DNA of 64,000 nucleotides from Coriobacteriales bacterium (GTDB taxonomy: Bacteria; Actinomycetota; Coriobacteriia; Coriobacteriales; CADBOM01), in contig JBMNUM010000003.1 of the NCBI GenBank assembly GCA_050946275.1, forward strand, positions 17,170 through 81,169, given 5' to 3'. The notes beneath the pieces were generated by a model. That model was not told the DNA's origin and made no database searches. It was given only the letters and a program-made list of their open reading frames with translations. The translations under genes and the position numbers were made by a program. This document shows, in pieces, positions 5,023 to 53,705 of the stretch; the stretch's first letter is position 1, and the number at the start of each line of letters is the position of its first letter.

Positions 5023-5097
5023 GGGCGATTGGCGCAGCGGTAGCGCAGGTGCTTTACACGCACAAGGTCAGCGGTTCAAATCCGTTATCGCCCACCA
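5023..5097 (+). tRNA. tRNA-Val (anticodon TAC), CCA encoded
   Basis: The cloverleaf reads GGGCGAT/ATCGCCC acceptor, GGCG/GCGC D-stem, GGTGC-TTTACAC-GCACA anticodon arm and AGCGG-TTCAAAT-CCGTT T-arm, with ACCA at the 3' end. Confidence 0.9.
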
Positions 5098-9790: not shown

Positions 9791-11869
9791 ATGGTTGCGA
9801 ACAACGAACAGAACGAGGCTCCGCAGGCACCCGTGCCCGTCGACTTGAACGAGGACGGCTACGCCACGCGCGCCGCCGTCTGGCGTATGGCGCTCGGCAT
9901 GCAGGAGCTCGTCGAGCTCGAGCGTTCCAGCGCACGCGAGCTGCCCTCGCGCGGCACCTCGACGTGGCTCGGAGAGCTGGCGGCCCAGCATGCCCATGGC
10001 GAGGTCGAGACCGGGGCGCTCCTCGACGCGGTCGAGCTCCACTACCTCGGCGAGACCGACGACGCCCGTCTGGTCGAGCGGCGTTCCGACATCCTCGTCA
10101 CCGGCATCGTGCTGCTCGTGCTCGGCGAACCCGGGAACCTCTCGGTGCGCTCGCTGGCGCATATCCACGAGACGCTCTTCGGCACTGGTTCGGCGGCCTT
10201 CCGCACGGCCGACATCGAGGAGCCCGAGCAGATCCTGGGCGGCAGGTCCGTCCAGTACATCCCGCATGGCATCATCGAGGACGTGGCGCATCATGAGCTC
10301 GCATCGTTCTCGCAGGTCCTCGAGCTGCCGGGCCTGCAGGGCCAGCGCAACCTCGGCCGTGCCATCGTGAAGCTGCTCGCCGGCTTGTGGCGCACCCGTC
10401 CATTCGGGCGCAATGACGCGCTCGTGCTCGCGGTGTTCCTCCTGCAGGTTCTCAAGCGGCATTCGATCCTCATCCAGCCCGATCCTCTCGCGCTGCACGC
10501 CCCGTATCTCCGCAACGCGCTCGTGCGGTCGTGCTACTCGAGCGTCGACCCCTGCGTCGGCGAGACGTTGCGCTTCCTCGAGCTCTTCTGCTCGAATCTG
10601 TTCGCCGGGGGAGCGTTTCCCCTGCGCGCCGACGAGACCATCTGTCACGAGCTCATGGACAAGTCGTTCGAGCTGCAATACGTCATCCACTCAGCCGACC
10701 GCGGCTTCTACCTGTTGAAGATCCACGACACGCCCCTGGCGACGATTCACTTCGAACCGCATCGCATGGGTGACATCACCATAGAGGGGATGGGTGTCGA
10801 GGGGAGCCAGGCGCACCTGTTGCCGCTGAATCTCATGGCGCGCTGCGACCAGATGGAGCTCGAGCGCTTCGTGAAGTCGCGCGTACTGGCGCGTGGTCGC
10901 GCCCACCGCGGCGACATTCTCGGCGCATATGGCATCTCGGGCGCGCGGACCTGGCCCATCGTGCATTTCTCCCATGGCGCGTGTGCCATGGATGCGTATT
11001 CGCTCGTCCGCAGCAACAACGGCGAGCCGTATCGCGGACACAGCCTCTTCGGCAACGAGCTCGACCCGACGCTCCAGCGCATCGCGCTCACCGGCGGGCT
11101 GCTCCGCGAGGAGGTGCGGCGCGTCGGCGTTCCCGGCGAGTTGACTAGCGGCGGCAAGGTGCCGAAGGCCTGGCGTGCCGATGGCGAGGGCGGGCTTGCG
11201 CTCTACAAGGCATCGCCCCGCTCGGGAGGGCATGGCCCGGGAACCGAGCACCTCGCCTCGCTGATCGCGCAGGCGATCGGGGCCGGCGGCGTGAGCTACG
11301 GTATGGGGGAGTGGCACGGCAAGACGTGCTCTACCTGCAAGGCTTTCACGTCCGGGGACATCTCGTTCACCCCATTCGGCCTGTGCATGGACCGCGATGC
11401 GCTCGGGTCGATGACGTTCCCCGCGGCGCTCGCGTTCTACGACGGTCTCGGCGAGCAGGCGGGGGAGGCGTTCCGCACGATCGTCGTCCTCGACTACCTG
11501 CTCGCGAATCCGGGGCGCGGCGTCACGGACCACGGTGTCATGCGCGACACGCATTCGGGGGAGATCCTGGGCACCGCCCCGGCGTTCGACTTCGAGGAGG
11601 CGCTCTTCTCCCGCGAGGAGGGGCTGCCCGGCGTCGAGGGCCTGCTCACCCGGGCATCGCGTCTCCCCGGCATGTTCCGCGGCAGCCTCGCCGAGCAGGC
11701 CGACCTGGCATGCGGCGATGCGCAGCGGGTTATCCTCGAGCGAGCGGCGACGCTCGATGCGGGCGACCTCGACGTGCACCTTCTCGAGGGGCACGACCCG
11801 ACGATGCTCGAGCGCCTCGAGGTGCTCGTCGCCTTCGTCCGCGCCCGAGCCGACCAGCTCCTCCGCTGA
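9791..11869 (+). CDS. large fusion protein with an N-terminal Fic/Fido-like region and a HipA-like (N and C) kinase-like region; both catalytic motifs are degenerate
   Basis: IHETLF...(72 aa)...RPFGRNDAL mimics the Fic spacing IHxxLF...HPFxxGNGR, but His is replaced by Arg. The C-terminal LDYLLANPGRGVTDHGVMRD...APAFDF mimics the HipA_C pattern DyLigNtDRHxxNxG...APxYD. The start could be 9770 or 9791. Confidence 0.6.
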   Translation: MVANNEQNEAPQAPVPVDLNEDGYATRAAVWRMALGMQELVELERSSARELPSRGTSTWLGELAAQHAHGEVETGALLDAVELHYLGETDDARLVERRSDILVTGIVLLVLGEPGNLSVRSLAHIHETLFGTGSAAFRTADIEEPEQILGGRSVQYIPHGIIEDVAHHELASFSQVLELPGLQGQRNLGRAIVKLLAGLWRTRPFGRNDALVLAVFLLQVLKRHSILIQPDPLALHAPYLRNALVRSCYSSVDPCVGETLRFLELFCSNLFAGGAFPLRADETICHELMDKSFELQYVIHSADRGFYLLKIHDTPLATIHFEPHRMGDITIEGMGVEGSQAHLLPLNLMARCDQMELERFVKSRVLARGRAHRGDILGAYGISGARTWPIVHFSHGACAMDAYSLVRSNNGEPYRGHSLFGNELDPTLQRIALTGGLLREEVRRVGVPGELTSGGKVPKAWRADGEGGLALYKASPRSGGHGPGTEHLASLIAQAIGAGGVSYGMGEWHGKTCSTCKAFTSGDISFTPFGLCMDRDALGSMTFPAALAFYDGLGEQAGEAFRTIVVLDYLLANPGRGVTDHGVMRDTHSGEILGTAPAFDFEEALFSREEGLPGVEGLLTRASRLPGMFRGSLAEQADLACGDAQRVILERAATLDAGDLDVHLLEGHDPTMLERLEVLVAFVRARADQLLR

Positions 11870-17272: not shown

Positions 17273-18109
17273 ATGCACGAGATTCTTGAGAAGACCCAAT
17301 TCTCGGAGAAGGTCTTCATGTTCAGGGTGCATGCGCCCAAGCTCGCCAAGCATGCGCACGCGGGGCAATTCCTCATCGTGCGCGTGAACGAGACGGGCGA
17401 GCGCGTGCCGTTCACGTTTGCAAACTGGAACCCGGAAGAGGGCTGGATCGAGTTCATCTTCATGAAGATCGGCAAGACGACCACGATGCTGTCGGAGCTC
17501 GAGCCGGGCGACCACATTCTCAACATCGCGGGCCCGCTGGGCAATCCGACCGACCTCTCGGGAGACAACTGGTGCGTCCTCGGCGGCGGCGTCGGCCTGG
17601 CGATCGCCTATCCGATTGCACGCCAGCTGTGCGAGCAGGGCAAGAAGGTCCACGTCATCATGGGCGCCCGCACGAAGGACCTGCTCCTGCTGGTCCCGCA
17701 GTTCGAGGAGCTGCCCCTAGCCGGCCTCCACATCACGACCGATGACGGCTCCTGCGGCGAGCAGGGCGTCGTCACGGCGCCGCTCGAGCGTCTGGCCGAC
17801 GAGGGCAAGATCGAGCGCGCGGTCGCCATCGGCCCCGTGCCCATGATGAAGTTCTCGTCTCTCACGTGCGAGAAGAAGGGCGTGCCGATCACCTGCTCGC
17901 TCAACCCGATCATGGTCGACGGTACCGGTATGTGCGGCTGCTGCCGCGTCGAGGTCGACGGGCAGACGAAGTTCGCCTGCGTCGACGGCCCCGAGTTCGA
18001 TGGAACGAAGGTCAACTGGGATGACCTGCGCAGGAGGCAGGCCGCCTATCGCGACGAGGAGGCCGTCTCTCTCGAGGCTTTCAAGGAGGGAGGCTGCAAA
18101 TGTCACTAG
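17273..18109 (+). CDS. nfnA: NfnA-type ferredoxin-NADP+ reductase small subunit (sulfide dehydrogenase SudB / PyrK-like FAD and 2Fe-2S protein)
   Basis: 278 aa with an FNR-like fold (RVPFTF, GGGVGLA) and the C-terminal cluster GTGMCGCCRVEVDG...FACVDGPEF. Confidence 0.82.
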   Translation: MHEILEKTQFSEKVFMFRVHAPKLAKHAHAGQFLIVRVNETGERVPFTFANWNPEEGWIEFIFMKIGKTTTMLSELEPGDHILNIAGPLGNPTDLSGDNWCVLGGGVGLAIAYPIARQLCEQGKKVHVIMGARTKDLLLLVPQFEELPLAGLHITTDDGSCGEQGVVTAPLERLADEGKIERAVAIGPVPMMKFSSLTCEKKGVPITCSLNPIMVDGTGMCGCCRVEVDGQTKFACVDGPEFDGTKVNWDDLRRRQAAYRDEEAVSLEAFKEGGCKCH

Positions 18110-19524
18110 ACGAGAAGAAGGAGCGCTACATCCCGCGTCCCAAGGACCCGCGCGTGCCCGCCAATGAGGAGGATCCCGCCGAGCGCATCAAGGACTTCCG
18201 TCCCGTCGATAACGGCTACACAGAGGAGATGGCGCTCGCAGAGGCGAACCGCTGCCTCAACTGCCCGAAGCCCAAGTGCATCGACGGCTGCCCGGCCGGC
18301 ATCGACATCCCCGGCTTCATCGCTGCGATTCGCGATAAGGACTACGGCCGCGGTCTCGACATCATCCGCGCCGACTCGCTGCTTCCCGCCATCTGCGGCC
18401 GCGTGTGCCCGCAGGAGAGCCAGTGCGAGAAGCTGTGCGTCGTGGGCGTCAAGAACGAGCCCGTCGCCATCGGCCAGCTCGAGCGCTTCCTCGGCGATAT
18501 GCCCGAGGTCGGCACGGAGCTTCCGGCCGCCGCTCCCAACGGCAAGAAGGTCGCCGTCATTGGTGCCGGTCCGTCCGGCATCACCTGTGCTGCCGAGCTG
18601 GCGCGCTACGGTTTCGACGTGACGGTCATCGAGGCCTTCTTCACCGGTGGAGGCGTGCTCGTCTACGGCATTCCGGAGTTCCGCCTGCCCAAGGACGTCG
18701 TCCGCCGCGAGCTCGACGTGCTCGCCGACCTGGGCGTCAAGTTCGAGTACAACTCGGTCGCCGGCCGCGTCACCAACGCGGAGGAGCTCTTCGACGAGGG
18801 CTACGACGCGATCTACATCGCCACCGGCGCCGGTGCCCCGAAGCTCATGAACATCCCGGGCGAGAACCTGCCCAACGTGTTCTTCGCCAACGAGTTCCTC
18901 ACGCGCGTGAACCTCATGAAGGCCAACAGGTTCCCGGAGTACGACACGCCCACGAAGCATGCCAAGAACGTCGTCGTCTTCGGCGGCGGCAACGTCGCCA
19001 TGGATGCCGTGCGCACGGCGCTGCGCCTCGGTGCGGAGAGCGCGACCATCGTCTACCGCCGCACGCGCAACGAGATGCCCGCCCGTGCTGCCGAGATCGA
19101 GCATGCGGAGGCCGAGGGAATCAAGTTCATCGAGCTCGCCGGCCCGCTGCAGTTCATCGCGGGCGAGGACGGCAAGGTCGCGGCTGTCGAGGTCCAGCAC
19201 ATGGAGCTCGGCGAGCCCGACGAGTCCGGACGCCGTCGTCCGGTGCCGATCGAGGGCGATACCGAGATCATCGAGTGCGACCTGGCCATCTCGGCCATCG
19301 GCACAAACGCCAACAAGATCAGCCCGCTCATCGGCGGCGTGGAGCTCGACAAGCGCGGCTACATCATCGCCGACGAGAAGACCGGGCGCACGTCCAATCC
19401 GCGCATCTGGGCCGGTGGAGACATCGTCACCGGCGCGGCCACCGTCATCCTGGCGATGGGTGCCGGCAAGGACGCCGCGCGCGATATCGCGAAGTCGCTT
19501 CTCGGCGAGGACGCTGTCAAGTAG
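18100..19524 (+). CDS. nfnB: NfnB-type NADPH-dependent oxidoreductase large subunit (GltD / glutamate synthase small-chain family)
   Basis: CLNCPKPKCIDGCP and CGRVCPQESQCEKLC are FeS motifs, and VAVIGAGPSG and VVVFGGGNVAMD are dinucleotide folds. The gene overlaps nfnA by 10 nt. Confidence 0.85.
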   Translation: MSLDEKKERYIPRPKDPRVPANEEDPAERIKDFRPVDNGYTEEMALAEANRCLNCPKPKCIDGCPAGIDIPGFIAAIRDKDYGRGLDIIRADSLLPAICGRVCPQESQCEKLCVVGVKNEPVAIGQLERFLGDMPEVGTELPAAAPNGKKVAVIGAGPSGITCAAELARYGFDVTVIEAFFTGGGVLVYGIPEFRLPKDVVRRELDVLADLGVKFEYNSVAGRVTNAEELFDEGYDAIYIATGAGAPKLMNIPGENLPNVFFANEFLTRVNLMKANRFPEYDTPTKHAKNVVVFGGGNVAMDAVRTALRLGAESATIVYRRTRNEMPARAAEIEHAEAEGIKFIELAGPLQFIAGEDGKVAAVEVQHMELGEPDESGRRRPVPIEGDTEIIECDLAISAIGTNANKISPLIGGVELDKRGYIIADEKTGRTSNPRIWAGGDIVTGAATVILAMGAGKDAARDIAKSLLGEDAVK

Positions 19525-27955: not shown

Positions 27956-29146
27956 TTACTGGTAGTTGTCGAAGACCTTGCCGCAGAACTCTTCCATCTG
28001 CCCGTAGGAGACGTCGCCGGGCGCGCAGATGTGGAACCAGTTGTGGTCGATGGCGCCATGTGCCAGCGCGACGCACATCTCGCGCGTGATCGGCTCGCCC
28101 GAAAGCTTGTCCTTCATGTCCTTCAGCGGAATCGTGCCGATCTCGCGCATGAAGACGCGAATCCAGTTGGAGACGAGCTGGCCGGCGGCGACATCGCCCA
28201 TGCACTCGGGAATCTCGATGCCGATGCATTTGGCGACGAGGCGGACGGTTTGCGGGCTCTTGTCGGCAACGAAATCGATGACCTCGGGAAGGGCGATGCC
28301 GCTGGCATAGCCATGGGTCAGATGGAAATGCAAGCCCGCCTCATGGCCGAAGCAGTGGCCGATGTGGACGGACATGTTCGCCAGGCCGTCGCCGGCGGCG
28401 TTGGCCGCATACAGCATCAGCGACCGCGCCTCGTAGTTCTCGGGCTCTCTCACCGCAATCGGCAGGAACTGGGTGATGATCTGGAGTGCATCCTTGCAAA
28501 GCGCGGTGCTCCAGGGGTTGTACCGATTCGAGGTAAGTGCCTCGATGGAATGCGCCATGGCGTCGAGGCCGGAGCTGATGGTCACGAATTCCGGGCAGGT
28601 GTACGTCATGGTCGGATCGAGGACGGCGAGGTCGGCGTAGCGCTCGACGGTTTTCTTGGAATCCGTCTGGAGCTCGTGGATTATGCACATCGGCGAGCCC
28701 TCGGATCCGGTTCCGGAGCTTGTCGGGACCAAGAAGACCGGAACGGTGGTCTTGAAGGTGCCCGCGCCGCCGTTCTCGGTCATGCACTGCCTGATCTTCT
28801 TAGCGGGGTTGGCGAGCAGGACGCTCGTTCCCTTCGCCGTATCCATCGCAGAGCCGCCGCCAACGCCTATGACGACATCGGCTCCATACAGCTTGGCTGC
28901 GTCGCCGGCACAGTCGACGGACTCGTCGGTGGGATCCAGGAACACGTCGGTGTAGACCATGAAGTCAAGGCCCGCCCTTTCGAGCGCATCCTCGACCCGC
29001 TGGACACCCCCAGCTGCCTCGACGCCCTTATCGCATACGAGGAACGCTTTCTTCTTGCCGGCTTCCGCCGCCATCTCGCCCATCTGCAGGAGGACGCCTT
29101 CACCGAAGATAGTGGGAACATGGCGTGAGTATGGCTTCTGCACCAT
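27956..29146 (-). CDS. iron-containing (group III) alcohol dehydrogenase, copy 1
   Basis: 396 aa from MVQKPY, with a GGGSAMDTAKG motif and His-rich metal site (HxxxH: HIGHCFGHEAGLHFHLTHG). The SD GGAAGGAGA lies upstream. Confidence 0.9.
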   Translation of the reverse strand: MVQKPYSRHVPTIFGEGVLLQMGEMAAEAGKKKAFLVCDKGVEAAGGVQRVEDALERAGLDFMVYTDVFLDPTDESVDCAGDAAKLYGADVVIGVGGGSAMDTAKGTSVLLANPAKKIRQCMTENGGAGTFKTTVPVFLVPTSSGTGSEGSPMCIIHELQTDSKKTVERYADLAVLDPTMTYTCPEFVTISSGLDAMAHSIEALTSNRYNPWSTALCKDALQIITQFLPIAVREPENYEARSLMLYAANAAGDGLANMSVHIGHCFGHEAGLHFHLTHGYASGIALPEVIDFVADKSPQTVRLVAKCIGIEIPECMGDVAAGQLVSNWIRVFMREIGTIPLKDMKDKLSGEPITREMCVALAHGAIDHNWFHICAPGDVSYGQMEEFCGKVFDNYQ

Positions 29147-29414
29147 AATCGTCTCCTTCCTCGTGTCTCGGCTGCCGCTTGGCGGTTGATATGGTGCGTG
29201 TCGACCCGGATATTCCAGACGGAAAGCGCATGCTGGCTTGCGGATTGGCGTCTGCCTTCCGTATGTAAATAAATGTACTACGTAAGGCGTTGAAACTAAT
29301 CTCTCGCGCACATGTGATGAGTGACTGGGATGATATGTAGAGAAATGTGATGCGGGCAGAAGAGCTGGAGAGAGGGTGCGGATAGCTGCCAAACAGCCCG
29401 GGCTGTTTGGCAGC

Positions 29415-29453
29415 AAAAAAGCGGCCCCCCGATGCAGGTGAATCGGGGGGCCG
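29415..29453 (-). terminator. Rho-independent terminator of Fe-ADH copy 2
   Basis: The minus strand reads gcggccccccgat-tcacctgc-atcggggggccgc followed by TTTTTT. Confidence 0.75.
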
Positions 29454-29501
29454 CCGTTGCGGGAGCGCCGTGTCTCTAGGCGGCGCTCATAAGGTTATCT
29501 C

Positions 29502-30701
29502 CTACTGATAGTTGTCGAAGACCTTGCCGCAGAACTCCTCCATCTGCTCGTAGCTGACGTCGCCAGGAGCAGCAATGTGGAACCAGTTGTGATCGATCGC
29601 GTCGTGAGCCAGGGCAACGACCTTCTCGCGGGTGATCGGCTCATCATTGACCCTGTCCTTCATGTCCTTGATCGGGACCATGCCGATCTCGCGCATGAAG
29701 TTGCGCAGCCAGTCGGAGACGAGCTTGGCGGCGGCGATGTCATCGGTTCCCTCGGGAATCTCGATACCGATGCAGTTGGCGATGGCCTTGACGCTCTGCG
29801 GGTTCTTCTCGGCGACGAAGTCGATGACCTCGGGGAGAGCGATACCGCAAGCATAGCCATGGTTCAGGTGGAACTGCATGCCGGCCTCGTGACCGAAGCA
29901 GTGGCCGATGTGGACGGACAGGTTGGCAAGACCGTCACCAGCAGCGTTCGACGCATACAGCATCTTCGCGCGAGCCTCGTAGTTCTGGGGCTCCTTGACT
30001 GCGACGGGCAGCCACTTGGTGATGATGCGGACAGCATCCTCGGAGAGCGTGGTGCTCCACGGGTTCCAGTTGAAGTTGTAGTCAGCGGTCAGAGCCTCGA
30101 TGGCATGAGCCAGAGCGTCGAGACCGGAGTTGACGGTCACGAAGTCCGGGCAGGTGTAGGTCATCGTGGGCTCGAGGACAGCGAGGTCGGCGTAACGCTC
30201 GACGACCTTCTTGCCGTCGCTCTCCAGCTCGTGGATAACGCACATCGGCGAGCCCTCGGCGCCGGTGCCGGCTGCCGTCGGAATAAGGTAGACAGGAACG
30301 TCGATCTTGTAGGTGCCATTGCCGCCGTTCTCGGTCATGCACTCCTTGATCTTCTTCTCCGGGTTGGCAAGAAGAACGCTCGTGCCCTTGGCGGTATCCA
30401 TCGGGGAGCCGCCACCGCAGCCGACGACGACGTCCGCGCCAAACTCCTTGGCAACGTCGCCAGCGTGGTCGATAGCCTCATCCGTGGGATCCGGGAACAC
30501 GTCAGAATAGATCATGACCTCAAGACCAGCATTCTTGAGAGCATCGGCAACCCTCTGGGCACCACCCGACGCCTCGACGCCCTTGTCACAGACAAGGAAG
30601 GCGCGCTGCTTGCCACTTTCCTTGGCGATCTTGCTCATCTCGTCCAGGGCGTCAGCGCCGAAGATCGAGGGAACTCTACGCCAATACGGTTGATGTGCCA
30701 T
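29502..30701 (-). CDS. iron-containing (group III) alcohol dehydrogenase, copy 2 (tandem paralogue)
   Basis: 399 aa, collinear with copy 1 and highly similar along the whole length by eye. It has GGGSPMDTAKG and the same His cluster. Confidence 0.9.
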   Translation of the reverse strand: MAHQPYWRRVPSIFGADALDEMSKIAKESGKQRAFLVCDKGVEASGGAQRVADALKNAGLEVMIYSDVFPDPTDEAIDHAGDVAKEFGADVVVGCGGGSPMDTAKGTSVLLANPEKKIKECMTENGGNGTYKIDVPVYLIPTAAGTGAEGSPMCVIHELESDGKKVVERYADLAVLEPTMTYTCPDFVTVNSGLDALAHAIEALTADYNFNWNPWSTTLSEDAVRIITKWLPVAVKEPQNYEARAKMLYASNAAGDGLANLSVHIGHCFGHEAGMQFHLNHGYACGIALPEVIDFVAEKNPQSVKAIANCIGIEIPEGTDDIAAAKLVSDWLRNFMREIGMVPIKDMKDRVNDEPITREKVVALAHDAIDHNWFHIAAPGDVSYEQMEEFCGKVFDNYQ

Positions 30702-33928: not shown

Positions 33929-34026
33929 TTTCTACCGTTGCATTTGCAACCGACTGCCACGCCGCTCGTGCATATACTTATATAAATAGGCGCGAGGGTA
34001 CGAGACAGAAGGGCGGCCGGATAGTC

Positions 34027-34794
34027 ATGGCGAGCGTATCTGGTAAGTGGGAGCTGTACGATCGATTAATCGAGGGCGTACCCGCTGGCATCGGGGTTCT
34101 CGATTGCTGCCTGGGCCTGCACTGGTCGTACGTTGAGGCCGAGTGCGGGATGGGCATCAGCCACACGCTGCGCGATGGGGCCCGCGCATCGAGCGGGGCA
34201 GACCCGCGCGAGCTCGACCTCAAATCGCTGTGCGCTCTCGCCAAGTCGTGGAACTTCACCGAGGCGACGCTCGGCGTGGCGGCGCTCAACGCGTGGTACA
34301 CCCAGCCGGAGCGCATCGAGGCGCTCGGCGGATCGTGGGACGACGAAACGGAGTCCGGCAAGGGGAGCAACCCGTTCTGGTCGATGCGGGATCGATGCAC
34401 CGGCAAGAAGGTCGCGATCATAGGTCACTTCCCGAACGTGAACGCCATGGCGCAGATAGCCGACGTCACCGTGCTCGAGCGCAACTGCTCGTCGGGACTC
34501 GACACGCCCGACTCCGCGTGCGAGTACATCCTGCCCGAGCAGGACTACGTGATGATGACGGGAACGACGCTCACGAACAAGACGATGCCCCGGCTGCTCG
34601 AGCTCTCGAGCGACGCGGTCGTGGTCGTGACGGGTCCCTCGGCGATTCCCGCGCTCCCGATGGCCGAGGCAGGCGTCGACATCATCGCCGGCAGCATGGT
34701 CGCCGACCCCGAGCTGGCCGCGTGGGCAATCCGCAGCTACACGAAATCCGTCTGGCGAGGCGGCATCCGCAAGTTCTTCTTGGAGTTCGCGTAG
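34027..34794 (+). CDS. DUF4213/DUF364 (Rossmann-like, putative heavy-metal chelation) domain protein
   Basis: The N-terminal LIEGVPAGIGVLDCCLGLHWSYVEAECGMGISHT fits the DUF4213 pattern. The C-terminal KKVAIIGHFP...MTGTTLTNKT fits DUF364. Confidence 0.72.
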   Translation: MASVSGKWELYDRLIEGVPAGIGVLDCCLGLHWSYVEAECGMGISHTLRDGARASSGADPRELDLKSLCALAKSWNFTEATLGVAALNAWYTQPERIEALGGSWDDETESGKGSNPFWSMRDRCTGKKVAIIGHFPNVNAMAQIADVTVLERNCSSGLDTPDSACEYILPEQDYVMMTGTTLTNKTMPRLLELSSDAVVVVTGPSAIPALPMAEAGVDIIAGSMVADPELAAWAIRSYTKSVWRGGIRKFFLEFA

Positions 34795-35284
34795 TGCGGG
34801 CAACGGGGGGCTCCGGCAATCCCGCGTTAGTGGGAGGATTGGCCGATTCGCCATCGGCCCGACCTCGTTTCGTCGCACGGGCTTGGCCGGGTCCATCGTC
34901 AAACGTGCCGCTTGAGCGGGAAAAACGCTGTTTCCAACGTCATAGTTCTGACGTATGTATTCGAATCCCGTATCAATCTCGCACCACCTTTCTTACCTAT
35001 CAAATTCATTGGTTTTTAAACAATCTCGCATTTGTCCGAACTACATTTTTTAAATGATAATGCGAGAAGAAACACCTGTAAGTAAACTTATCTAGAACAA
35101 CTTGTATTAAGTGGAATTAAATTTGAGCAAGTACGGGAATTCTGGATTATTTGTGAATTTGTAGCGGTATTCTATCGGCTATGACCAATTGATAAGCCTA
35201 TGCGCTGATGCGCAGCGGCGTCGTTTGAAGATATAGGCGCGACTGCGCAGGAAAAGATTTCACGCATATTGGTCAATGCAAAAA

Positions 35285-35371
35285 GGAGAGGGATTTGGAA
35301 GAAAGGGAGGGTCGCGATCGGAAAGTTAACTTGCGTGTTTTAGGTAGTATCCGTTTAGGATGGAGGTAGAA
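35285..35371 (+). promoter_or_regulatory. conserved 5' leader of MFS cassette 1
   Basis: ggagagggatttggaagaaagggaggGtcgcGatcggaaagttAacttgcgtgttT... is almost identical to 46789-46850. It ends in a small hairpin (ATCC/GGAT) abutting the SD GGAGG. Confidence 0.55.
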
Positions 35372-36664
35372 ATGACTACTGAAGTCAACTCTGGTGCTTC
35401 TCTGCAAGTGCCGAAGATGGGCAAGGGTGCCTGGGCGGTCATGATTTCCGTCTGGATCGTCGGCATCGTGCTCGCCATCGCACAGTACAAGGCCATGGCT
35501 ACCACGACGTACATCGCCGAGGACATGGGCCTGACGGCCTCCGAGGCTGGTTGGATTTCCGGCGTTTTCACGTTCACCGGCATCATCCTGGCCTTCCCGG
35601 CTGCTAACGTTCTCAAGAAGCTCGGCCCGAAGATGTCGCTGATTCTCTCCTGCGCCTTCGCCATCGTCGGTGGCGTGATCGGCTTCTTCGCCGCTGGCTA
35701 CGTCCCGATGCTCATCTCCCGTGTCATCGAGGGTATCGGCCTCAGCTTCGTCGGTGTCGTCGGTCCTGCGACGATCGCCATGTGGTTCCCGATCGAGAAG
35801 CGCGGTCTGCCGATGGGCATTTGGTCCAACTGGCAGATGGTCGGTATCTCGATCTGCTTCTACAGCAGTGCTCCGATGACCATGGCCTGGAGCTGGCGCT
35901 CCCTGTGGCTGTTGGGCGTCGTCTGCTGCATCATCGGCCTGGTTCTGGCCGCTATCGTCGTCAAGGCTCCGCCCAAGGAGTTCAACCATGCTGACGTCCA
36001 GGACGAGGGCACCAAGCTCACCAAGGTCTTCAGCATGCGCGATGTCTGGCTGGTCGCTCTGGCCGGTCTGGCCTTCGGTCTGTCCAACTCCGTCGTCATC
36101 CAGTGGGTCGCTCCGTACTGGATCAACAACACTGGCATGGATCCCGGAATGGCCGGTAACCTCACTGGTGCTCTGTTCACGACTGAGTGCGTGTTCACCA
36201 TCATCTTCGGCTTCATCTTCAACAAGATGAAGAGCCGCAAGAAGGCCATCGTTATCGACTCCGCTCTGTACTCGGTGACCTTCCTGGTTATCTTCTCGAT
36301 GACCAACGTCCCGGCAGCTATCTTCTCGCTGTTCTTCTATGCTATCGTCGAGGCCTTCTTCTGCATGGCCATGTGGACCCTCGTCGGCCAGACCGTCACG
36401 GATCCGCGTGTCGCCGCTGGCGCGATCGCCCTCTACACGATCATGATTGACGTTGGAATGTGGCTCGGCCCGATCTTCTCCGGCATGATCCTCGACCACG
36501 CTGCCGTGGCGGCTGGCGTCGATCCCACCGGTGGTGCCGGTGCTGGCGTGCCTGGCGCGTTCTTCGGCGTCATGTGCTTCACCATCGCCGCTCAGGTCGT
36601 TGCGACCATCGCTTGGGGCCTCCTGAGGCTCTACAACGAGCAGGGCGAGAGGGTCAAGATGTAA
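35372..36664 (+). CDS. MFS transporter (paralogue 1), substrate unknown
   Basis: About 12 TM segments and an MFS loop motif (LKKLGPKMSL; EKRGLPMG). The start was chosen at the second ATG, 5 nt after GGAGG. About three-quarters of residues are identical by eye to 46879-48168. Confidence 0.85.
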   Translation: MTTEVNSGASLQVPKMGKGAWAVMISVWIVGIVLAIAQYKAMATTTYIAEDMGLTASEAGWISGVFTFTGIILAFPAANVLKKLGPKMSLILSCAFAIVGGVIGFFAAGYVPMLISRVIEGIGLSFVGVVGPATIAMWFPIEKRGLPMGIWSNWQMVGISICFYSSAPMTMAWSWRSLWLLGVVCCIIGLVLAAIVVKAPPKEFNHADVQDEGTKLTKVFSMRDVWLVALAGLAFGLSNSVVIQWVAPYWINNTGMDPGMAGNLTGALFTTECVFTIIFGFIFNKMKSRKKAIVIDSALYSVTFLVIFSMTNVPAAIFSLFFYAIVEAFFCMAMWTLVGQTVTDPRVAAGAIALYTIMIDVGMWLGPIFSGMILDHAAVAAGVDPTGGAGAGVPGAFFGVMCFTIAAQVVATIAWGLLRLYNEQGERVKM

Positions 36665-36737
36665 GACGGGTTGTACCCGCTACGATCTTGTGAGTATGGA
36701 TATCGCATAGATTTCATAACTCAATGAACCTCAAGGT

Positions 36738-36771
36738 CTCGGCTCCGCTTCGGCGGGGCCGAGGCTTTTTT
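36738..36771 (+). terminator. Rho-independent terminator of MFS cassette 1
   Basis: ctcggctccgc-ttcg-gcggggccgag is followed by gcTTTTTT. The core ggctccgcttcggcggggcc is the same as at 48239-48275. Confidence 0.8.
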
Positions 36772-36843
36772 ATGGGCACAAATGTATGTGACGACTCGGC
36801 TGGCCGGGCGGTCTGCCGGCGCATCCTTCTCACGGCAAGCCGG

Positions 36844-36849
36844 TATAAT
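36844..36849 (+). promoter_or_regulatory. putative -10 box (GGTATAAT) for cbiH
   Basis: A perfect TATAAT lies 26 nt upstream of the ATG at 36875. Confidence 0.4.
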
Positions 36850-36874: not shown

Positions 36875-37648
36875 ATGGGCAAGCTGAGCGTTGTGGGCAT
36901 AGGGCCGGGGAATCCGGCTGGCATGACCGCCACTGCAGTCGAGGTGCTGCACGAGGCGGACCTCGTGTGCGGCTACACGCGCTACATCGAGCTCGTCTCC
37001 GAGGCGATCGGGGATACCGAGACGCTTGCCACGGGCATGACGGGCGAGGTCGAGAGGTGCCGGGCTGCGCTCGAGGCGGCCGCGCAGGGGCGTACGGTGG
37101 CAATGGTGTGCAGTGGCGATGCCGGCGTCTATGGCATGGCGAGCCTCGTGTACGAGCTTGCCGGCGAGTTCCCGCCCGTCGAGATTCGCGTCATTCCCGG
37201 CGTGACGGCGGCGCTCTCGGGCGGCGCACTGCTCGGCGCACCGCTCTCGCATGATTTCTGCATCATCTCGCTCTCCGACCTTCTGACTCCCTGGGAGACC
37301 ATCGAGAAGCGCCTCGATGCCGCCGCTGCGGGGGATTTTTGCATTGCGCTCTACAACGTCGGAAGCAGGCATCGTTTGGAGCACCTGCGCCGGGCGTGCG
37401 ATATCCTGCTCGCGCGCAAACCGGCAGACACGGTCTGCGGCATCGCGCGCAATATCGGGCGCGAGGGCGAGGAGAGTCGCACCTGCACGCTCTCCGAGCT
37501 GCGGGATGTCGAGGCGGATATGGGCATGACCGTGTTCGTTGGCAACGCCGAGACGCGCCTCGTCGATGGCAAGATGGTGACGCCGCGCGGCTACGATGTG
37601 GGCGATCTCGTCGACACGGACTCCCGTGACGGGGGTGCCTCCTCGTGA
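36875..37648 (+). CDS. cbiH: cobalt-factor III / precorrin-3B C17-methyltransferase
   Basis: MGKLSVVGIGPGNPAGMT..., VCSGDAGVYGMAS and IPGVTAA indicate a tetrapyrrole methylase of CbiH/CobJ type. Confidence 0.88.
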   Translation: MGKLSVVGIGPGNPAGMTATAVEVLHEADLVCGYTRYIELVSEAIGDTETLATGMTGEVERCRAALEAAAQGRTVAMVCSGDAGVYGMASLVYELAGEFPPVEIRVIPGVTAALSGGALLGAPLSHDFCIISLSDLLTPWETIEKRLDAAAAGDFCIALYNVGSRHRLEHLRRACDILLARKPADTVCGIARNIGREGEESRTCTLSELRDVEADMGMTVFVGNAETRLVDGKMVTPRGYDVGDLVDTDSRDGGASS

Positions 37649-43579: not shown

Positions 43580-44482
43580 CTACGACCTCGGGCCGTACAC
43601 GTACACCTCGTGAATCTCGTGGTCGTAGCCGTCGTAGAAACCGACCGGCATGCCCTGCACGATCTTCGCGCCACGGTTGTAGAGCACGAGCATCTCGCCC
43701 GAGTCCTCATCGAAGGTCAGTCCCTCAATCTCGCCCTGGAGCTGGACGTCGTCGAGCGTCTTCGCGGGCACGACCTCCACCTCGGTTGCCCCGTCGGCGA
43801 GCTCGAAGCGGTACGCGTGGTCGGGGGCGTTCTTGTCAGCGTCGCCGTCATCGGCGGTGACGTAGTAGCCGCCATCGTGGTAGGCGATTCCCTGAATCCA
43901 CTTGGGGGCGGGGGAGAGGAGCACCTTGCCCAGGTACTCACCCGACTCGAGGTCGTAGTTGTAGATATACTCGCCGGTGTCGGTCCATGCGCACATCGAG
44001 ACGACCTTCGTGTCGGGGTTCACGCAGATGCCGCTGCACTCGTCCTGTCCGCTCTCCTTATCGAAGTTGAATGTGCGCTTGAGCTGCAGCGTGTCGCCAT
44101 CGTAGACGGCGATCTGGATGTTCGAGGCGACGCCGTCCTCGAACAGCTCCACGCCGCAGTACACCTCGTTGTCGTGCACGTCGATGTCGCCGATGTGGTT
44201 CACCTCGAGTTCGTAGCCCTTCTCGAAGGGGGAGTCGTTCGTCGCGACGAGGTTCCAGTCCTTGTCGTATTTGGAGAGCGTGGTCGAGCCGCTCACCCAG
44301 TAGCTTCCGTTCTCGGCCGCAACTCCCTGCCGGCCGTCGACCTCCACGACCTTCGCCAGCTCTCTCGACTCGTCGTTTCCGCTCTCCGCCGAACCGGCGT
44401 CCTGCGCGCAGCCTGCCAAGGGCAAGACCAGGACCAGCGAGGCGGCGACGGCGATCAATGCGTTCCTGAGTTGCTTGTTCAT
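43580..44482 (-). CDS. lipoprotein of unknown function, repetitive beta-strand (propeller-like) pattern
   Basis: The signal peptide has the lipobox LPLAGC. Short motifs of aromatic and Asp residues recur (YWVSG, VYCGVE, IAVYDG, ICVNPD, IYNYD, GIAYHDGGYYVTADDG, IEGLTFD). It is the only minus-strand gene inside the cbi locus. Confidence 0.7.
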   Translation of the reverse strand: MNKQLRNALIAVAASLVLVLPLAGCAQDAGSAESGNDESRELAKVVEVDGRQGVAAENGSYWVSGSTTLSKYDKDWNLVATNDSPFEKGYELEVNHIGDIDVHDNEVYCGVELFEDGVASNIQIAVYDGDTLQLKRTFNFDKESGQDECSGICVNPDTKVVSMCAWTDTGEYIYNYDLESGEYLGKVLLSPAPKWIQGIAYHDGGYYVTADDGDADKNAPDHAYRFELADGATEVEVVPAKTLDDVQLQGEIEGLTFDEDSGEMLVLYNRGAKIVQGMPVGFYDGYDHEIHEVYVYGPRS

Positions 44483-44593
44483 CGGGGTTTCCCTTCCATA
44501 ATTGCCTGCTGGCGCGAAGGCCGTTGGTGCAGAGGCACTCAATGTGCGCTAAAGGCATCGTACACCAGATACGGCGCTGGCATCATCCGTCAA

Positions 44594-46373: not shown

Positions 46374-46788
46374 CGGGCTGATGGCGTGACAGGTGAAGCC
46401 CGTTGACCTGCCCGCGTTCCGACCGTAAGCACTCTTAACGAGATGTCGTTATCAATTGTTCTTCGAATGTCAAGGGCAGTGCTTGCATCTGGCAATTTCA
46501 TCATTTTCGTACTTTATTTCACTACTTTTTAGCATGCTTTTTACGTAAAATCGCAGTCTAACGCACTACATATTTCACTAATCAAAAACAAACAAAATAG
46601 GCATAAGTAAAACAACATACAAAAGAACATATTTATTACTGGCTATTTAAAGCAAATTATGGATTATTTGTGAATTTTTGAAAAAGGCGTACTGACGCTT
46701 GCAGAACGCGGGCCGTTCCAACGTACGTCTTGGCTATGGTTTGAAATTGCAGACGCATGTGCGAACGCGTATGAGTCAGGCATTTAAC

Positions 46789-46878
46789 GGAGAGGGATTT
46801 GGAAGAAAGGGAGGTTCGCTATCGGAAAGTTGACTTGCGTGTTCTAGGTAAGTGTTCCTTGCAGGAATGGAGGTAGAA
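46789..46878 (+). promoter_or_regulatory. conserved 5' leader of MFS cassette 2
   Basis: Near-identical to 35285-35346. Its SD-proximal hairpin TTCC/GGAA (46855-46867) replaces ATCC/GGAT of copy 1, so the change is compensatory. Confidence 0.55.
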
Positions 46879-48168
46879 ATGACTACAGAAGTCACTGGCT
46901 CTGGAGTCCAAGTCCCGAAGATGGGCAAGGGCGCATGGGTAATCGCGATCACCGTGTGGATCATCGGTATCGTGCTCGCCATCGCCCAGTACAAGGCCAT
47001 GGCGACGACGACGTTCATCGCCGAGGACATGGGCCTGACGGCCACCCAGGCTGGTTGGATTTCCGGTATCTTCACGTTCACCGGCATCATCCTGGCCTTC
47101 CCTGCCGCAGGTATTCTCAAGAAGCTCGGTCCGAAGATGGCCCTGATCCTCTCCACCGGCTTCGCGGTCGTCGGCGGCATCGTCGGCTTCTTCGCTCCCG
47201 GCTTCGCTCCGATGATCGCCTCCCGTATCGTCGAGGGTGTCGGCCTCGGCCTCGTCGGCGTTGTCGGCCCGGCCACCATCGCGATGTGGTTCCCGATCGA
47301 GAAGCGCGGTCTTCCGATGGGCATCTGGTCGAACTGGCAGACGGTCGGTATCTCGATCTGCTTCTTCACCTCGGTCCCGATGACCATGTCGATGGGCTGG
47401 CGCTCGCTGTGGATCATGGGCGTCATCTGCTGCGCCGTTGGTCTGATTCTGGCCGCGATTATCGTTAAGGCTCCGCCCAAGGAGTACAACCATGCCGACG
47501 TCCAGGACGACGATGCCAAGCTCTTCAAGGTCTTCGGCATGCGCGACGTCTGGCTGGTCGCCCTGGCCGGTCTGGCGTTCGGTCTCTCGAACTCCGTCGT
47601 CATCCAGTGGGTTGCCCCGTACTGGATCAACAACACCGGCATGGATCCCGGACTTGCCGCCAACATGACCGGCATCCTGTTCACCATCGAGAGTGTCTTC
47701 ACCATCGTCTGGGGTGTCGTGTTCAACAAGATGAAGTCCCGCAAGAAGGGCATCGTTACCTTCTCCGGCCTCTATGCCGTTAGCTTCATCTTCATCTTCT
47801 CCACGAGCACGGTTTCTCTTGCCTGGGCTTCGATGTTCTTCTATGCCATCGTCGAGGCGTTCTTCATCATGGCGATGTGGACGCTCGTCGGCCAGACCAC
47901 TCCCGACCCGCGCGTTGCGGCTGGCGCGATGGCCGTCTACACGATCGTGGTTGACCTCGGCATGTGGCTCGGCCCGATCTTCTCCGGCATGATCCTCGAC
48001 CACGCTGCTATCGCGGCTGGTATCGATCCCACCGGTGGTGCAGGTGCTGCCGTGCCCGGCGCGTTCCTCGGCTGCATGGCCTTCTCCGTGACCTTCCAGG
48101 TCATCGCGACGATTGCCTGGGCGGCTCTGAGGCTGTACGACGAGCAGGGCAATAGGGTCAAGATGTAG
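46879..48168 (+). CDS. MFS transporter (paralogue 2), substrate unknown
   Basis: Collinear with 35372-36664 and shares the same N-terminus MTTEV and C-terminus RLY(N/D)EQG(E/N)RVKM. Confidence 0.85.
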   Translation: MTTEVTGSGVQVPKMGKGAWVIAITVWIIGIVLAIAQYKAMATTTFIAEDMGLTATQAGWISGIFTFTGIILAFPAAGILKKLGPKMALILSTGFAVVGGIVGFFAPGFAPMIASRIVEGVGLGLVGVVGPATIAMWFPIEKRGLPMGIWSNWQTVGISICFFTSVPMTMSMGWRSLWIMGVICCAVGLILAAIIVKAPPKEYNHADVQDDDAKLFKVFGMRDVWLVALAGLAFGLSNSVVIQWVAPYWINNTGMDPGLAANMTGILFTIESVFTIVWGVVFNKMKSRKKGIVTFSGLYAVSFIFIFSTSTVSLAWASMFFYAIVEAFFIMAMWTLVGQTTPDPRVAAGAMAVYTIVVDLGMWLGPIFSGMILDHAAIAAGIDPTGGAGAAVPGAFLGCMAFSVTFQVIATIAWAALRLYDEQGNRVKM

Positions 48169-48238
48169 GACTGGCGTACGCCACGATCTTGAAAGCACGA
48201 GTGCTTGATTAGCTTCGAATAACTCGTGCGAACCCAAG

Positions 48239-48275
48239 GCTCCGGCTCCGCTTCGGCGGGGCCGGAGCTTTTCTC
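48239..48275 (+). terminator. Rho-independent terminator of MFS cassette 2
   Basis: gctccggctccgc-ttcg-gcggggccggagc is followed by ttttctc. Confidence 0.75.
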
Positions 48276-48293
48276 ATGCCCTCGCGCGCTCGG

Positions 48294-48299
48294 TATAAT
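48294..48299 (+). promoter_or_regulatory. putative -10 box (GGTATAAT) for cbiC
   Basis: A perfect TATAAT overlaps the first bases of the family B hairpin. Confidence 0.4.
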
Positions 48300-48330
48300 G
48301 AGTCGATAATGACAGCCATCATCGACTCAT
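48298..48330 (+). repeat. hairpin repeat family B, subtype a
   Basis: atgagtcgataatgacagccatcatcgactcat. The arms are the same as at 3401-3433. Confidence 0.85.
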
Positions 48331-48351
48331 TCGGGGAGGAGGGACGCGGAG

Positions 48352-48999
48352 ATGGCCGACGTGGAGCGGGTGCTTCCCGCCGACATCGAGCGGCGGAGCA
48401 TGGAGATCATCGACGCCGAGCTTGCCTCGCGCGGCATCGTGCTCGATGTGCGCAATGCGGCCGTCGTCAAGCGCGTCATCCACACCTCGGCGGACTTCGA
48501 CTACGCGGGTAACCTGCGCTTCTCGCCCGGTGCCGTCGATGCGGGCGTCACCGCGCTCAAGGCCGGCGCGACCATCCTCACCGACACGAACATGGCCCGC
48601 GCGGGCGTGAGCAAGCCGGCGCTCGCCAAGCTCGGTGGTGACGTCGTCTGCTACATGGCCGACGAGAACGTCGCCCGCACCGCCCGCGAGCAGGGCACAA
48701 CGCGCGCCGTCGCCTCCATGGAAAAGGCCGCCCGCACACTCGATGCGCCTGTCGTCGCCATCGGGAATGCGCCCACCGCGCTCATCCATCTCGTCGAGCT
48801 CATCGACGCCGGCGCCATCGCGCCGCGGCTCGTCATCGGCGTCCCCGTGGGGTTCGTGAACGTCGAGGCGAGCAAGGAGCTCATGATGGAGCGCGCCGAC
48901 GTACCGTGGATCGTCGCGCGCGGCCGCAAGGGCGGCTCGAACATAGCGGCCGCCATCTGCAACGCGCTGCTCTACGAGGCCACGGGCCGCCAGTTGTGA
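48352..48999 (+). CDS. cbiC: cobalt-precorrin-8 methylmutase
   Basis: VIHTSADFDY, ILTDTNM, AIGNAPTAL, PVGFV and GGSNIAAA are hallmark CbiC/CobH blocks. Confidence 0.92.
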   Translation: MADVERVLPADIERRSMEIIDAELASRGIVLDVRNAAVVKRVIHTSADFDYAGNLRFSPGAVDAGVTALKAGATILTDTNMARAGVSKPALAKLGGDVVCYMADENVARTAREQGTTRAVASMEKAARTLDAPVVAIGNAPTALIHLVELIDAGAIAPRLVIGVPVGFVNVEASKELMMERADVPWIVARGRKGGSNIAAAICNALLYEATGRQL

Positions 49000-51159: not shown

Positions 51160-51330
51160 TCGCATACAGGTAATGGCTAGGCGGAGCCGCCTGCTCGCAG
51201 GCGGGGCCGGACCGGATGTCCGGCAAGGGGAATGCGGGTGAGAATCCCGCGCTATACCAGTAACCGTAAACGCCGGCGCTGCTGCGCATGGCAAAGTCGG
51301 AATGCCTTTCCGCTGAAACGAGACGCCCTG
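51160..51330 (+). ncRNA. cobalamin (B12) riboswitch
   Basis: CAAGGGGAAUGCGGGUGAGAAUCCCGC (51223-51250) matches the conserved AAGGGAA..GGUGAnAAUCC core. AAGUCGGAAUGCC (51294-51306) resembles the B12 box rAGYCMGgAgaCCkGC. It lies upstream of the cbiK-like operon. The boundaries are approximate. Confidence 0.6.
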
Positions 51331-52611: not shown

Positions 52612-52644
52612 GTGAGTCGATGACGGAGATCGTCATCGGCTCAT
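52612..52644. repeat. hairpin repeat family B, subtype a-like
   Basis: gtgagtcgatgacggagatcgtcatcggctcat has two mismatches between the arms. Confidence 0.7.
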
Positions 52645-52664
52645 CCCGCTGGCAAGGAGTGCTC

Positions 52665-53705
52665 ATGGAGAAACGAATCAGCTGGTTGAAGGTGATGCTC
52701 GCCGCCGCGCTGTGCGCGTTCGTGATCGCGTGCATGCCGGCCATCGCGCTGGCCGAGGACGAGGCGGCGACGGATGCCGAGCCGGGTGTCGCGAAGGCCG
52801 ACGACTACGGAGAGCGCGAGGAAGTCGGTGCGGACAACCTCGTCCCGATCACGCCCGACATGCTCCCGGACGGCACGTACGACCTCACGGCCGACACCGA
52901 CTCGTCGATGTTCAAGATAACGAAGTGCGAGGTGACCGTCGCCAACGGCGAGATGACCGCGGTCTTCACGCTCGGCGGCACCGGCTACGAGCGCCTCTAC
53001 CGAGGCGAGGGCAAGGATGCCCTCAAGGCCGACGCGTCCGAGTACGCTGAGGCGGTCGAGGATGCCGACGGCGCCTACACCTACACCATGAGCATCCCCG
53101 CGATCAACTACCGCATGGACGTCAGCGCGTTCAGCAAGCGCAAGCAGCTTTGGTATGACCATACCGTCGTGATCGACCCGGCGGGTCTGCCCGAGGGCAC
53201 CATCATGATGGGCGCGTACGCTCCCGAGGCCGGCGACCCGTTCAAGGCCAAGAGCGCCTACACCAAGCTCGAGGACGGCATCTACACGATGGAGGTCGAG
53301 CTCGCCGGCGGCACCGGCAAGGCGTCGATCACCTCTCCGGCCTATGTGAAGGTCGAGGACGGCCATCCGGTCGTCTCGCTCGAGTGGAGCAGCCAGAACT
53401 ACGACTACATGATCCTCAACGGCGAGAAGTACCTGCCGGTCGAGCGGGATAAGAAGAACTACTTCGAGCTGCCGATCATGGTGTTCGACGAGCCGATGGA
53501 CGTCATCGCCGACACGACGGCCATGAGCCAGCCGCACGAGATCGCCTATCAGCTCACCTTCAAGGAGGACACGGCCGTCAACGCCTCCCAGGGCATCCAT
53601 GTCCCGTCCAAGGTGGTGTTCCTGGTCATCGTCGTCTTCGCCGCCGTCATCCTCCTGCTCTTCCGCTCGAGGATGCGTTCTGCCAGTGGCAAGGCCAGAC
53701 GCTGA
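52665..53705 (+). CDS. secreted, C-terminally membrane-anchored protein with two internal beta-rich repeats; function unknown
   Basis: The signal peptide is MEKRISWLKVMLAAALCAFVIACMPAIALA. Two DGxY-initiated repeats are present (DGTYDLTADTDSSMFKITKCEVTVANGEM... and DGIYTMEVELAGGTGKASITSPAYVKVEDGH...). The C-terminal TM segment VVFLVIVVFAAVILLLF is followed by a basic tail. The SD AAGGAG lies at 52654. Confidence 0.7.
   Translation: MEKRISWLKVMLAAALCAFVIACMPAIALAEDEAATDAEPGVAKADDYGEREEVGADNLVPITPDMLPDGTYDLTADTDSSMFKITKCEVTVANGEMTAVFTLGGTGYERLYRGEGKDALKADASEYAEAVEDADGAYTYTMSIPAINYRMDVSAFSKRKQLWYDHTVVIDPAGLPEGTIMMGAYAPEAGDPFKAKSAYTKLEDGIYTMEVELAGGTGKASITSPAYVKVEDGHPVVSLEWSSQNYDYMILNGEKYLPVERDKKNYFELPIMVFDEPMDVIADTTAMSQPHEIAYQLTFKEDTAVNASQGIHVPSKVVFLVIVVFAAVILLLFRSRMRSASGKARR

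Follow-up and report, generated by a model that had tools for sequence, protein, structure and literature searches.

Two duplicated permease cassettes of the major facilitator superfamily inserted in the cobamide-synthesis locus of a Coriobacteriales bacterium

How cobamide producers obtain cobalt, lower-ligand bases and tetrapyrrole precursors is poorly covered by the known transporters, especially in gut anaerobes. The nearest relatives with a recurring genomic context of the permeases examined here are major facilitator superfamily (MFS) genes from catechol-dehydroxylase and urolithin clusters of Gordonibacter, Eggerthella and Ellagibacter. These homologs (40-58% identity) adjoin a molybdopterin oxidoreductase of the catechol-dehydroxylase type, a 4Fe-4S subunit and a Trigger_C-type protein, and four of the loci also have LuxR-type regulators. 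MFS genes beside catechol dehydroxylases are "thought to transport substrates" (10.1101/2025.01.17.632430). Like those genes, the two MFS genes described here follow long untranslated upstream regions. They lie in a window of 64,000 nt (the whole stretch of DNA that was analysed) from a metagenome-assembled genome (MAG) of an as yet uncultured gut bacterium of the Coriobacteriales, within an anaerobic-type cbi locus with housekeeping genes around it, as judged by Pfam scans of the open reading frames (ORFs) in the window. An earlier note on this DNA, made from the letters alone, preceded our analysis.

The MFS permease that the genes encode is specific to one clade, and its arrangement, though unusual, can be explained: each gene forms part of a cassette with an upstream island, a leader and a terminator. 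The arrangement is confirmed. The functional link between the cassettes and B12 synthesis is a proposal drawn from sequence, in which a solute permease (an importer) would have been co-opted as an accessory of the cobamide locus, and we give this reading a probability of roughly 45%. The cassettes contain the following features.

35372-36664, plus strand: MFS_A, a 430-aa MFS permease with 12 predicted helices (Pfam MFS_1, 140.2 bits)
46879-48168, plus strand: MFS_B, a 429-aa MFS permease (Pfam MFS_1, 128 bits)
34895-35284, plus strand: AT-rich island A, 40% GC, a presumed regulatory region
46410-46788, plus strand: AT-rich island B, 39% GC
35143-35160, plus strand: conserved 18-mer TGGATTATTTGTGAATTT, copy A, exact in both islands
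46660-46677, plus strand: conserved 18-mer TGGATTATTTGTGAATTT, copy B, exact in both islands
35285-35371, plus strand: leader A, with the purine-rich core GGAGAGGGATTTGGAAGAAAGGGAGG and then the Shine-Dalgarno sequence GGAGG
46789-46878, plus strand: leader B, about 81-82% identical to the leader of the related locus L094 (in the 100-nt windows holding it)
36733-36771, plus strand: intrinsic terminator A, a 16-bp hairpin and T-run (-29.8 kcal/mol, z -5.8)
48236-48275, plus strand: intrinsic terminator B, a 16-bp hairpin and T-run (-32.5 kcal/mol, z -6.0)
36842-36849, plus strand: -10-like box GGTATAAT before cbiH, followed by ATCGATTCATT, which is common to cassette B
48292-48299, plus strand: -10-like box GGTATAAT before cbiC, with a -35-like TTCTCA 17 nt upstream

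The two MFS genes had been described by eye as collinear and about three-quarters identical, and alignment agrees: the proteins are identical at 329 of 430 positions (77%) and the coding sequences (CDS) at 1053 of 1290 nucleotides (82%). Both proteins belong to the MFS, as they exceed the Pfam MFS_1 cutoff of 33.4 bits, the AlphaFold2 model of MFS_A (pLDDT 91.6) has 12 long helices, and Foldseek matched hundreds of MFS structures. A Lys in transmembrane helix 1 (TM1) and Arg/Glu in TM4 are invariant in the family. No subfamily was assigned, since NCBIfam, the sequence search of the PDB and Foldseek gave generic MFS matches only.

Only 65 MFS homologs were found, all taxon-labelled ones from Coriobacteriia, and the family appears to be small and so far found almost only in that class. 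A metagenome scan for the MFS gene added one close locus, on a 2-kb contig (L085), and five distant ones. The homologs regularly adjoin presumed client enzymes, with several hundred untranslated bases between, and two of them at about 37-38% identity are followed by an ORF of about 305 aa that is nitrilase-like on sequence inspection alone. In one Gordonibacter MAG (L101, 3840-6000) an rpoN (sigma-54) gene precedes the MFS homolog, and a near-consensus sigma-54 promoter-like site, TGGCATGGTTCTTGCA, lies at 5478 (11/12 match).

In the window, the 5' part of the locus consists of two Fe-ADH genes (minus strand), cbiD, a cbiF-like gene, cbiG, a DUF364 gene and MFS_A. The middle part consists of cbiH, cbiJ, cbiET, cbiA, cbiB, cobD, a lipoprotein gene (minus strand), cobQ and MFS_B, and the 3' part of cbiC, fecCD, an ABC ATPase gene, an AdoCbl-II riboswitch, cbiK and the genes of an anchored surface protein and a binding protein. 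The neighbours that matter for the cassettes are these.

34024-34794, plus strand: DUF364/DUF4213 gene (Pfam DUF364 and DUF4213; PDB 3L5O, E=1e-34)
36875-37648, plus strand: cbiH, with a Shine-Dalgarno sequence and ATG at 36875 (Pfam TP_methylase; homologs found)
43580-44542, minus strand: lipoprotein gene (320 aa) between cobD and cobQ, with a signal peptide and LAGC lipobox
48297-48331, plus strand: 15-nt inverted repeat, 93% complementary, overlapping the GGTATAAT box of cbiC, before the cbiC start
48352-48999, plus strand: cbiC (Pfam CbiC), whose first ~8 codons are unlike those of relatives' cbiC

The claim that the cassettes were inserted into the cobalamin locus is supported by the gene order of other cbi loci. 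We scanned the species-representative genomes of GTDB for CbiB and obtained 80 loci, the best CbiB match being 57% identical; there were no close relatives among these representatives. In none of the 80 was this MFS or DUF364 found within 10 kb of cbiB. The genes cbiG and cbiH are at most 199 nt apart in 40 of the 41 scorable loci, and cobQ and cbiC at most 194 nt apart in 30 of 47. The gene order of the window recurs in an Eggerthellaceae MAG (L006), except that DUF364, the MFS genes and the lipoprotein gene are missing there, and in a Coriobacteriales MAG with 69% CbiH identity (L103) cbiG abuts cbiH with no cassette.

Closer relatives were found through CbiH, namely L094 (77% identity), L096-L098 (74%) and L095 (95%). 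The order in L094 is U32 peptidase, two Fe-ADH genes, cbiD-cbiF-cbiG-DUF364-MFS-cbiH and onward to cobQ-cbiC-fecCD-ABC, and in L095 and L096-L098 the MFS gene is likewise directly upstream of cbiH. The two cassettes thus differ in distribution: the junction before cbiH (site A) is occupied by DUF364 and an MFS unit in four related lineages, including that of the window, and the junction before cbiC (site B) only in the genome of the window. There the insert spans 46374-48351 (1978 bp), immediately after the cobQ stop, and in L094 and L096 a gap of 3 nt is all that separates this stop from the cbiC ATG. Because the cassette is present in four related lineages and missing in more distant ones, site A points to an old insertion, made before a narrow clade of Coriobacteriales diverged. 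The cbiJ of L094 matches in two pieces (10762-11229 and 11334-11645, within 10762-11645), so that its contig probably contains either a frameshift or an error of assembly.

No mobile element was identified, there being no flanking terminal repeats, no transposase or integrase among the scanned ORFs of the window and no plasmid match; an insertion sequence, transposon or integron cassette was rejected on this basis. The GC content at third codon positions of the MFS genes (0.82-0.83) is the same as that of neighbouring genes, so that only the non-coding islands are compositionally odd, and a recent foreign origin of the MFS genes was rejected as well.

L094 has a single MFS protein, which shares 93% of its residues with MFS_B and 77% with MFS_A, and the partial MFS proteins of L096-L098 are 95-96% identical to MFS_B and 74-79% to MFS_A. 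On these identities MFS_B, not MFS_A, is the conserved ortholog of the relatives' single gene; the Cbi enzymes flanking it are 66-88% identical between the window and L094, as compared with 93% for MFS_B itself. Synonymous divergence (dS) is 0.45 between MFS_A and MFS_B and 0.30 between MFS_B and L094, and the ratio of non-synonymous to synonymous divergence (dN/dS) is 0.33 and 0.15, respectively; the cassette unit has been kept under purifying selection. MFS_A is the faster-evolving paralog (about threefold at non-synonymous sites).

The relationship of the cassettes is not uniform along their length. Compared in sliding windows, L094 is closest to cassette B in its leader and CDS (0.81-0.97) and to island A in its distal island (0.64-0.65, versus 0.40-0.55 for island B). 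In L092 the tail of a cassette-type terminator, GGCGGGGCCGAGGTTTTTTTATG, lies at 1-30 directly upstream of the AT-rich island, which suggests tandem MFS cassettes in that genome. L095 (1-400) matches the window completely (100%) through the non-coding 3' flank of MFS_A but at only 86% over the final 64 residues of the MFS protein, a difference that points to recombination or gene conversion within the MFS gene. These patterns might be explained by an ancestor with tandem A- and B-type cassettes at the DUF364/cbiH junction. In the lineage of L094 the tandem cassettes would have collapsed into a hybrid by recombination, in that of the window the two would have become separated by the cbiH-cobQ block, and the paralogs may still exchange segments.

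The AT-rich island that the earlier note placed before each cassette is evident in the base composition: at 40% and 39% GC in a window of 64% GC, islands A and B stand alone among its 400-nt stretches in falling below 45%. Outside the 18-mer the two islands agree at only about 49% of positions. The 18-mer TGGATTATTTGTGAATTT, absent from the earlier note, occurs at these two sites only in the 64 kb (0.01 occurrences expected), and L092 and L094 share its 13-nt core TGGATTATTTGTG; a protein may bind at the 18-mer. The islands may hold a promoter or operator of their own. A sigma-54 promoter and a clear sigma-70 promoter were rejected: for sigma-54 (GG-N10-GC in a TGGCAC/TTGCA context) the best matches in the window reached 5/12 or nothing, and the sigma-70 scan of the islands gave weak, non-conserved matches only.

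Similarity between the cassettes was said to extend upstream into a leader of about 60 nt, and it does: a 62-nt core (35285-35346 and 46789-46850) is identical at 58 of 62 positions, above the conservation of the CDS, and the leader is conserved in L091-L094. Some 60 nt before the real start the leader has a tract, GAAGAAAGGGAGG, that is nearly complementary to the 3' end of 16S rRNA. In six cassettes this tract hardly varies (one of them has a single mismatch and a one-base deletion). Ribosome-binding 5' mRNA stabilisers of the STAB-SD type occur in Gram-positive bacteria, and the purine-rich leader might act on the mRNA either as such a stabiliser or as a protein-binding site, and not as a riboswitch.

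No Rfam family matched either MFS leader at E<=10, and no cobalamin/AdoCbl aptamer (clan CL00101) was found in either MFS upstream region even at E<=10; a transporter controlled by a cobalamin riboswitch was rejected accordingly. The only B12 aptamer of the window is the AdoCbl-II riboswitch at 51210-51315, before cbiK, and none precedes cbiD. L006 has two B12 riboswitches (2145-2281 and 17958-18176), and none was detected in 20 kb of L094 spanning its cbiD-to-ABC region. As the main cbi unit of the clade lacks a riboswitch, the missing riboswitch before the MFS genes is uninformative. Nor did a new structured RNA find support in the leaders: folding z-scores of -0.2 to +0.85 are no better than those of shuffled sequence, and the consensus fold (-13 kcal/mol) has an unfavourable covariation term, computed from six sequences too alike for statistical power. 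TTG-initiated upstream ORFs (uORFs) of 24-25 codons (35295-35369 and 46799-46875) end in a TAG two bases before the MFS start codon. A conserved leader peptide was rejected, since the frame and length of the uORF change in L094 and L092.

Downstream, an intrinsic (Rho-independent) terminator follows each MFS gene. Its core GGCTCCGCTTCGGCGGGGCC occurs exactly twice in the window, each time as a hairpin with a T-run, which bears out the similarity reported for this side of the cassettes. Together with three terminators from other loci, the two in the window have stems of 15-16 bp, energies of about -30 kcal/mol and z-scores of -4.6 to -6.9, and their stem sequences differ between lineages with the structure kept.

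The box GGTATAAT occurs three times in the window (0.16 expected), and two of these occurrences, at 36842 and 48292, closely precede cbiH and cbiC, where the earlier note had seen the box. TATAAT is perfect at both sites, a -35-like TTCTCA was found for cbiC only, and TATAAT is kept before cbiH in L094, L095 and L098 though the flanks diverge. The boxes are putative sigma-70-type restart promoters for cbiH and cbiC. The start of cbiH at 36782, that of the ORF, does not hold; the gene really begins with the ATG at 36875, after the box. The duplicated unit runs past the terminator to include the GGTATAAT box and ATCGAYTCATT, and because both right ends share the terminator, the box and this motif, the restart box appears to have travelled with the unit. 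The right arm of the 15-nt inverted repeat, ATCGACTCATT, is common to the cbiH leader of cassette A, and the repeat may be an operator or attenuator.

The earlier note regarded the cassettes as self-contained units of promoter, leader, transporter and terminator. This is true of the 3' end, which is closed, but not of the 5' side, where the promoter is putative and a terminator scan found no intrinsic terminator between DUF364 and MFS_A or between cobQ and MFS_B. With no terminator before them, the two MFS genes would each close a transcription segment of the cbi locus, and transcripts of the preceding cbi genes may read through into them. The predicted segments would be cbiD...DUF364-MFS_A, cbiH...cobQ-MFS_B and cbiC onward, with downstream genes dependent on the restart boxes, and each MFS gene may end its cbi segment and at the same time be served by a promoter in its island.

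As a correction to the earlier account, the DUF364 gene lies between cbiG and cassette A, and it is part of the same clade-specific insertion. It is present in L094 at 82% identity and missing in L006, L103 and the 80 cbiB-anchored loci, and it appears co-transcribed with cbiG. Elsewhere the DUF364 family occurs in metal-uptake loci (PMC2954201; 10.1101/2024.03.05.583561), and its one characterised member converts a derivative of S-adenosylmethionine (SAM) into an azetidine amino acid (PMC12930334). The protein could be a pathway enzyme or the maker of a chelator.

Some other parts of the window stand apart from the cassettes. The 320-aa lipoprotein has no Pfam or PDB match, and its gene is missing in L094, L096 and L006. 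A gene at 52620-53705, following cbiK behind the riboswitch, encodes a protein of 361 aa that combines a signal peptide with two internal repeats and a membrane anchor at the C-terminus, and that matches no family or solved structure. Its L006 homolog is likewise behind a B12 riboswitch, and the protein may be a surface corrinoid-binding protein. A guanidine-III riboswitch (3279-3339, minus strand) and a tRNA gene (5023-5094) are both distant from the cassettes.

In the reading that we favour, the permeases would take up a small organic solute by proton coupling and so supply the cobamide pathway. The candidate solutes, in descending order of preference, are a cobalt chelate or other DUF364-linked product, an aromatic lower-ligand base and a tetrapyrrole precursor. 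A cobamide link is preferred because the cassette has been retained at its junction under purifying selection, because co-transcription with cbi genes is possible and DUF364 was co-inserted, because the family regularly lies beside presumed client enzymes, and because Pfam scans of genes of the locus revealed no cobalt transporter family.

Several observations weigh against this reading. The minus-strand lipoprotein gene is a third insertion in the same operon, with no evident B12 link. The cassette is missing from all more distant cbi loci examined, L006 and L103 among them, and linkage within one clade amounts to a single event inherited by descent; the second copy could be simply a local duplication. 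The locus lacks the nucleotide-loop genes expected to accompany a lower-ligand importer. Among solved folds the closest are generic MFS ones, homologs at 37-58% identity occur in unrelated contexts, and the cobalt importers covered in review are ABC, ECF, NiCoT, HupE and CorA systems, not MFS, and are usually B12-regulated (PMC7689651). Our literature search on MFS transporters in cobamide loci found nothing specific. Finally, the contig of L085 (1-2079) encodes a third MFS type, 78% identical to MFS_A and 71% to MFS_B, directly upstream of an ortholog of Fe-ADH2 (93%) and not of a cbi gene. In the window (27956-30701) Fe-ADH2 is the divergent neighbour of cbiD, and an inversion of the cbiD-MFS block in a window-like locus would give the gene order of L085. 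The earlier note had set the functional link against two expectations taken together, that cbi loci of close relatives never contain the cassettes and that the same MFS genes occur in unrelated contexts. The first is contradicted by L094, L095 and L096-L098, and the second is borne out by the homologs at 37-58% identity.

A bolder reading is unlikely. Here DUF364 and the MFS permeases would constitute a new cobamide supply route in anaerobic Actinomycetota, with TGGATTATTTGTGAATTT and the leader as a new regulatory module. Either a SAM-derived cobalt chelator would be made, exported and re-imported, or the permease would be the first MFS-type importer of a cobamide precursor (a lower-ligand base or tetrapyrrole precursor).

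Alternatively, the cassettes might be passengers, that is, substrate-induced permeases for a compound unrelated to cobamide synthesis (for instance an aromatic acid or phenol from the diet, or a compound on which the Fe-ADH enzymes encoded nearby act) that landed in a permissive junction. We hold this main rival possible, and somewhat less likely than the favoured reading. The restart promoters would then only repair a polar effect, and the second copy would be a by-product of local duplication. The island, 18-mer and leader sequences, found nowhere else in the window, fit such a unit, as does the strong terminator after each MFS gene, and the usual neighbours of the family are molybdopterin oxidoreductase clusters. 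The position of the L085 homolog beside Fe-ADH2, the further insertion in the operon and the lack of the cassette in every other cbi locus examined point in the same direction, and two diverging paralogs suggest a broadening substrate range. What speaks for the co-opted importer over a passenger is that the same junction has been kept in four lineages (dS between the window and L094 is 0.2-0.9), that no terminator separates the cbi and MFS genes, that the cassette was co-inserted with a DUF364 gene apparently co-transcribed with cbiG, and that both copies remain within the cbi locus.

It is decidedly unlikely that the permeases are exporters, although siderophores and staphylopine do have MFS exporters. 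By this analogy they would secrete a chelator or other product made by DUF364, or remove toxic tetrapyrrole by-products. DUF364 is adjacent in the window and L094, the characterised member of its family makes an azetidine amino acid from a SAM derivative (PMC12930334), other DUF364 genes lie in metal-transport loci (PMC2954201), and the locus contains an importer consisting of FecCD, an ABC ATPase and a binding protein. The second cassette, however, is without a DUF364 partner, L006 has the FecCD system too although DUF364 and MFS are missing there, and the relatives beside catabolic enzymes are presumed importers; the direction of transport is itself a property that cannot be read from sequence. 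An artefact or decay (a mis-assembled MAG, in which repeated cassettes can mislead assemblers, or remnants of decaying genes) is hardly credible, given that independent contigs from other samples repeat the MFS/cbiH junction (with the non-coding flank 100% identical in L095), that both ORFs are intact and under purifying selection, and that the copies differ by 18% in DNA, too much for collapse or confusion by an assembler.

A transporter kept inside a cbi operon, beside an enzyme family (DUF364) linked more than once to metal uptake, is a concrete and testable candidate; if the cassettes are passengers, the locus reflects ordinary genome tinkering. The locus is also a clean natural example of an operon that survives internal insertion, in which a strong terminator ends the upstream part, a carried -10 box restarts the downstream part, and another junction can afterwards receive a copy of the complete unit.

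Compared with known systems, the closest structural likenesses are to SfMCT, an SLC16-type transporter of aromatic monocarboxylates from Syntrophobacter fumaroxidans (6G9X/6HCL/6ZGR/6ZGS), and DgoT, an anion:cation symporter (PDB 6E9N/6E9O). Like the window's proteins, both are 12-helix MFS transporters, at 16-18% identity, and they are the best fold matches (Foldseek E ~3e-12, TM ~0.72). DgoT is also the best sequence match in the PDB (E=3e-6, N-terminal half only). SfMCT and DgoT head a list of generic MFS neighbours, and since VMAT2, sialin, FLVCR and sugar porters score nearly as well, the fold match says MFS and little about the substrate. At the family level, scores for the D-galactonate type of anion:cation symporter (TIGR00893) are 59.1 and 52.8 bits, far below the curated cutoff of 395. 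CynX/NimT, the name given to the window protein in GenBank, corresponds to a weak match to TIGR00896 (38.9 and 37.3 bits), and with a curated cutoff of 406 bits the label is unsupported as membership. The leader tract GAAGAAAGGGAGG resembles the STAB-SD stabilisers, a resemblance of sequence only. As with CbiMNQO, NiCoT, CbtAB/CbtJKL and HupE, a transporter lies among cbi genes with no other cobalt-transporter family detected, but unlike those systems the MFS permeases belong to another protein family and are without riboswitch control. The 64-kb window contains no molybdenum enzyme or LuxR gene by Pfam scans, and unlike the MFS genes of the catechol-dehydroxylase clusters, those of the window lie inside a cbi operon and form a separate clade of at least 75% identity.

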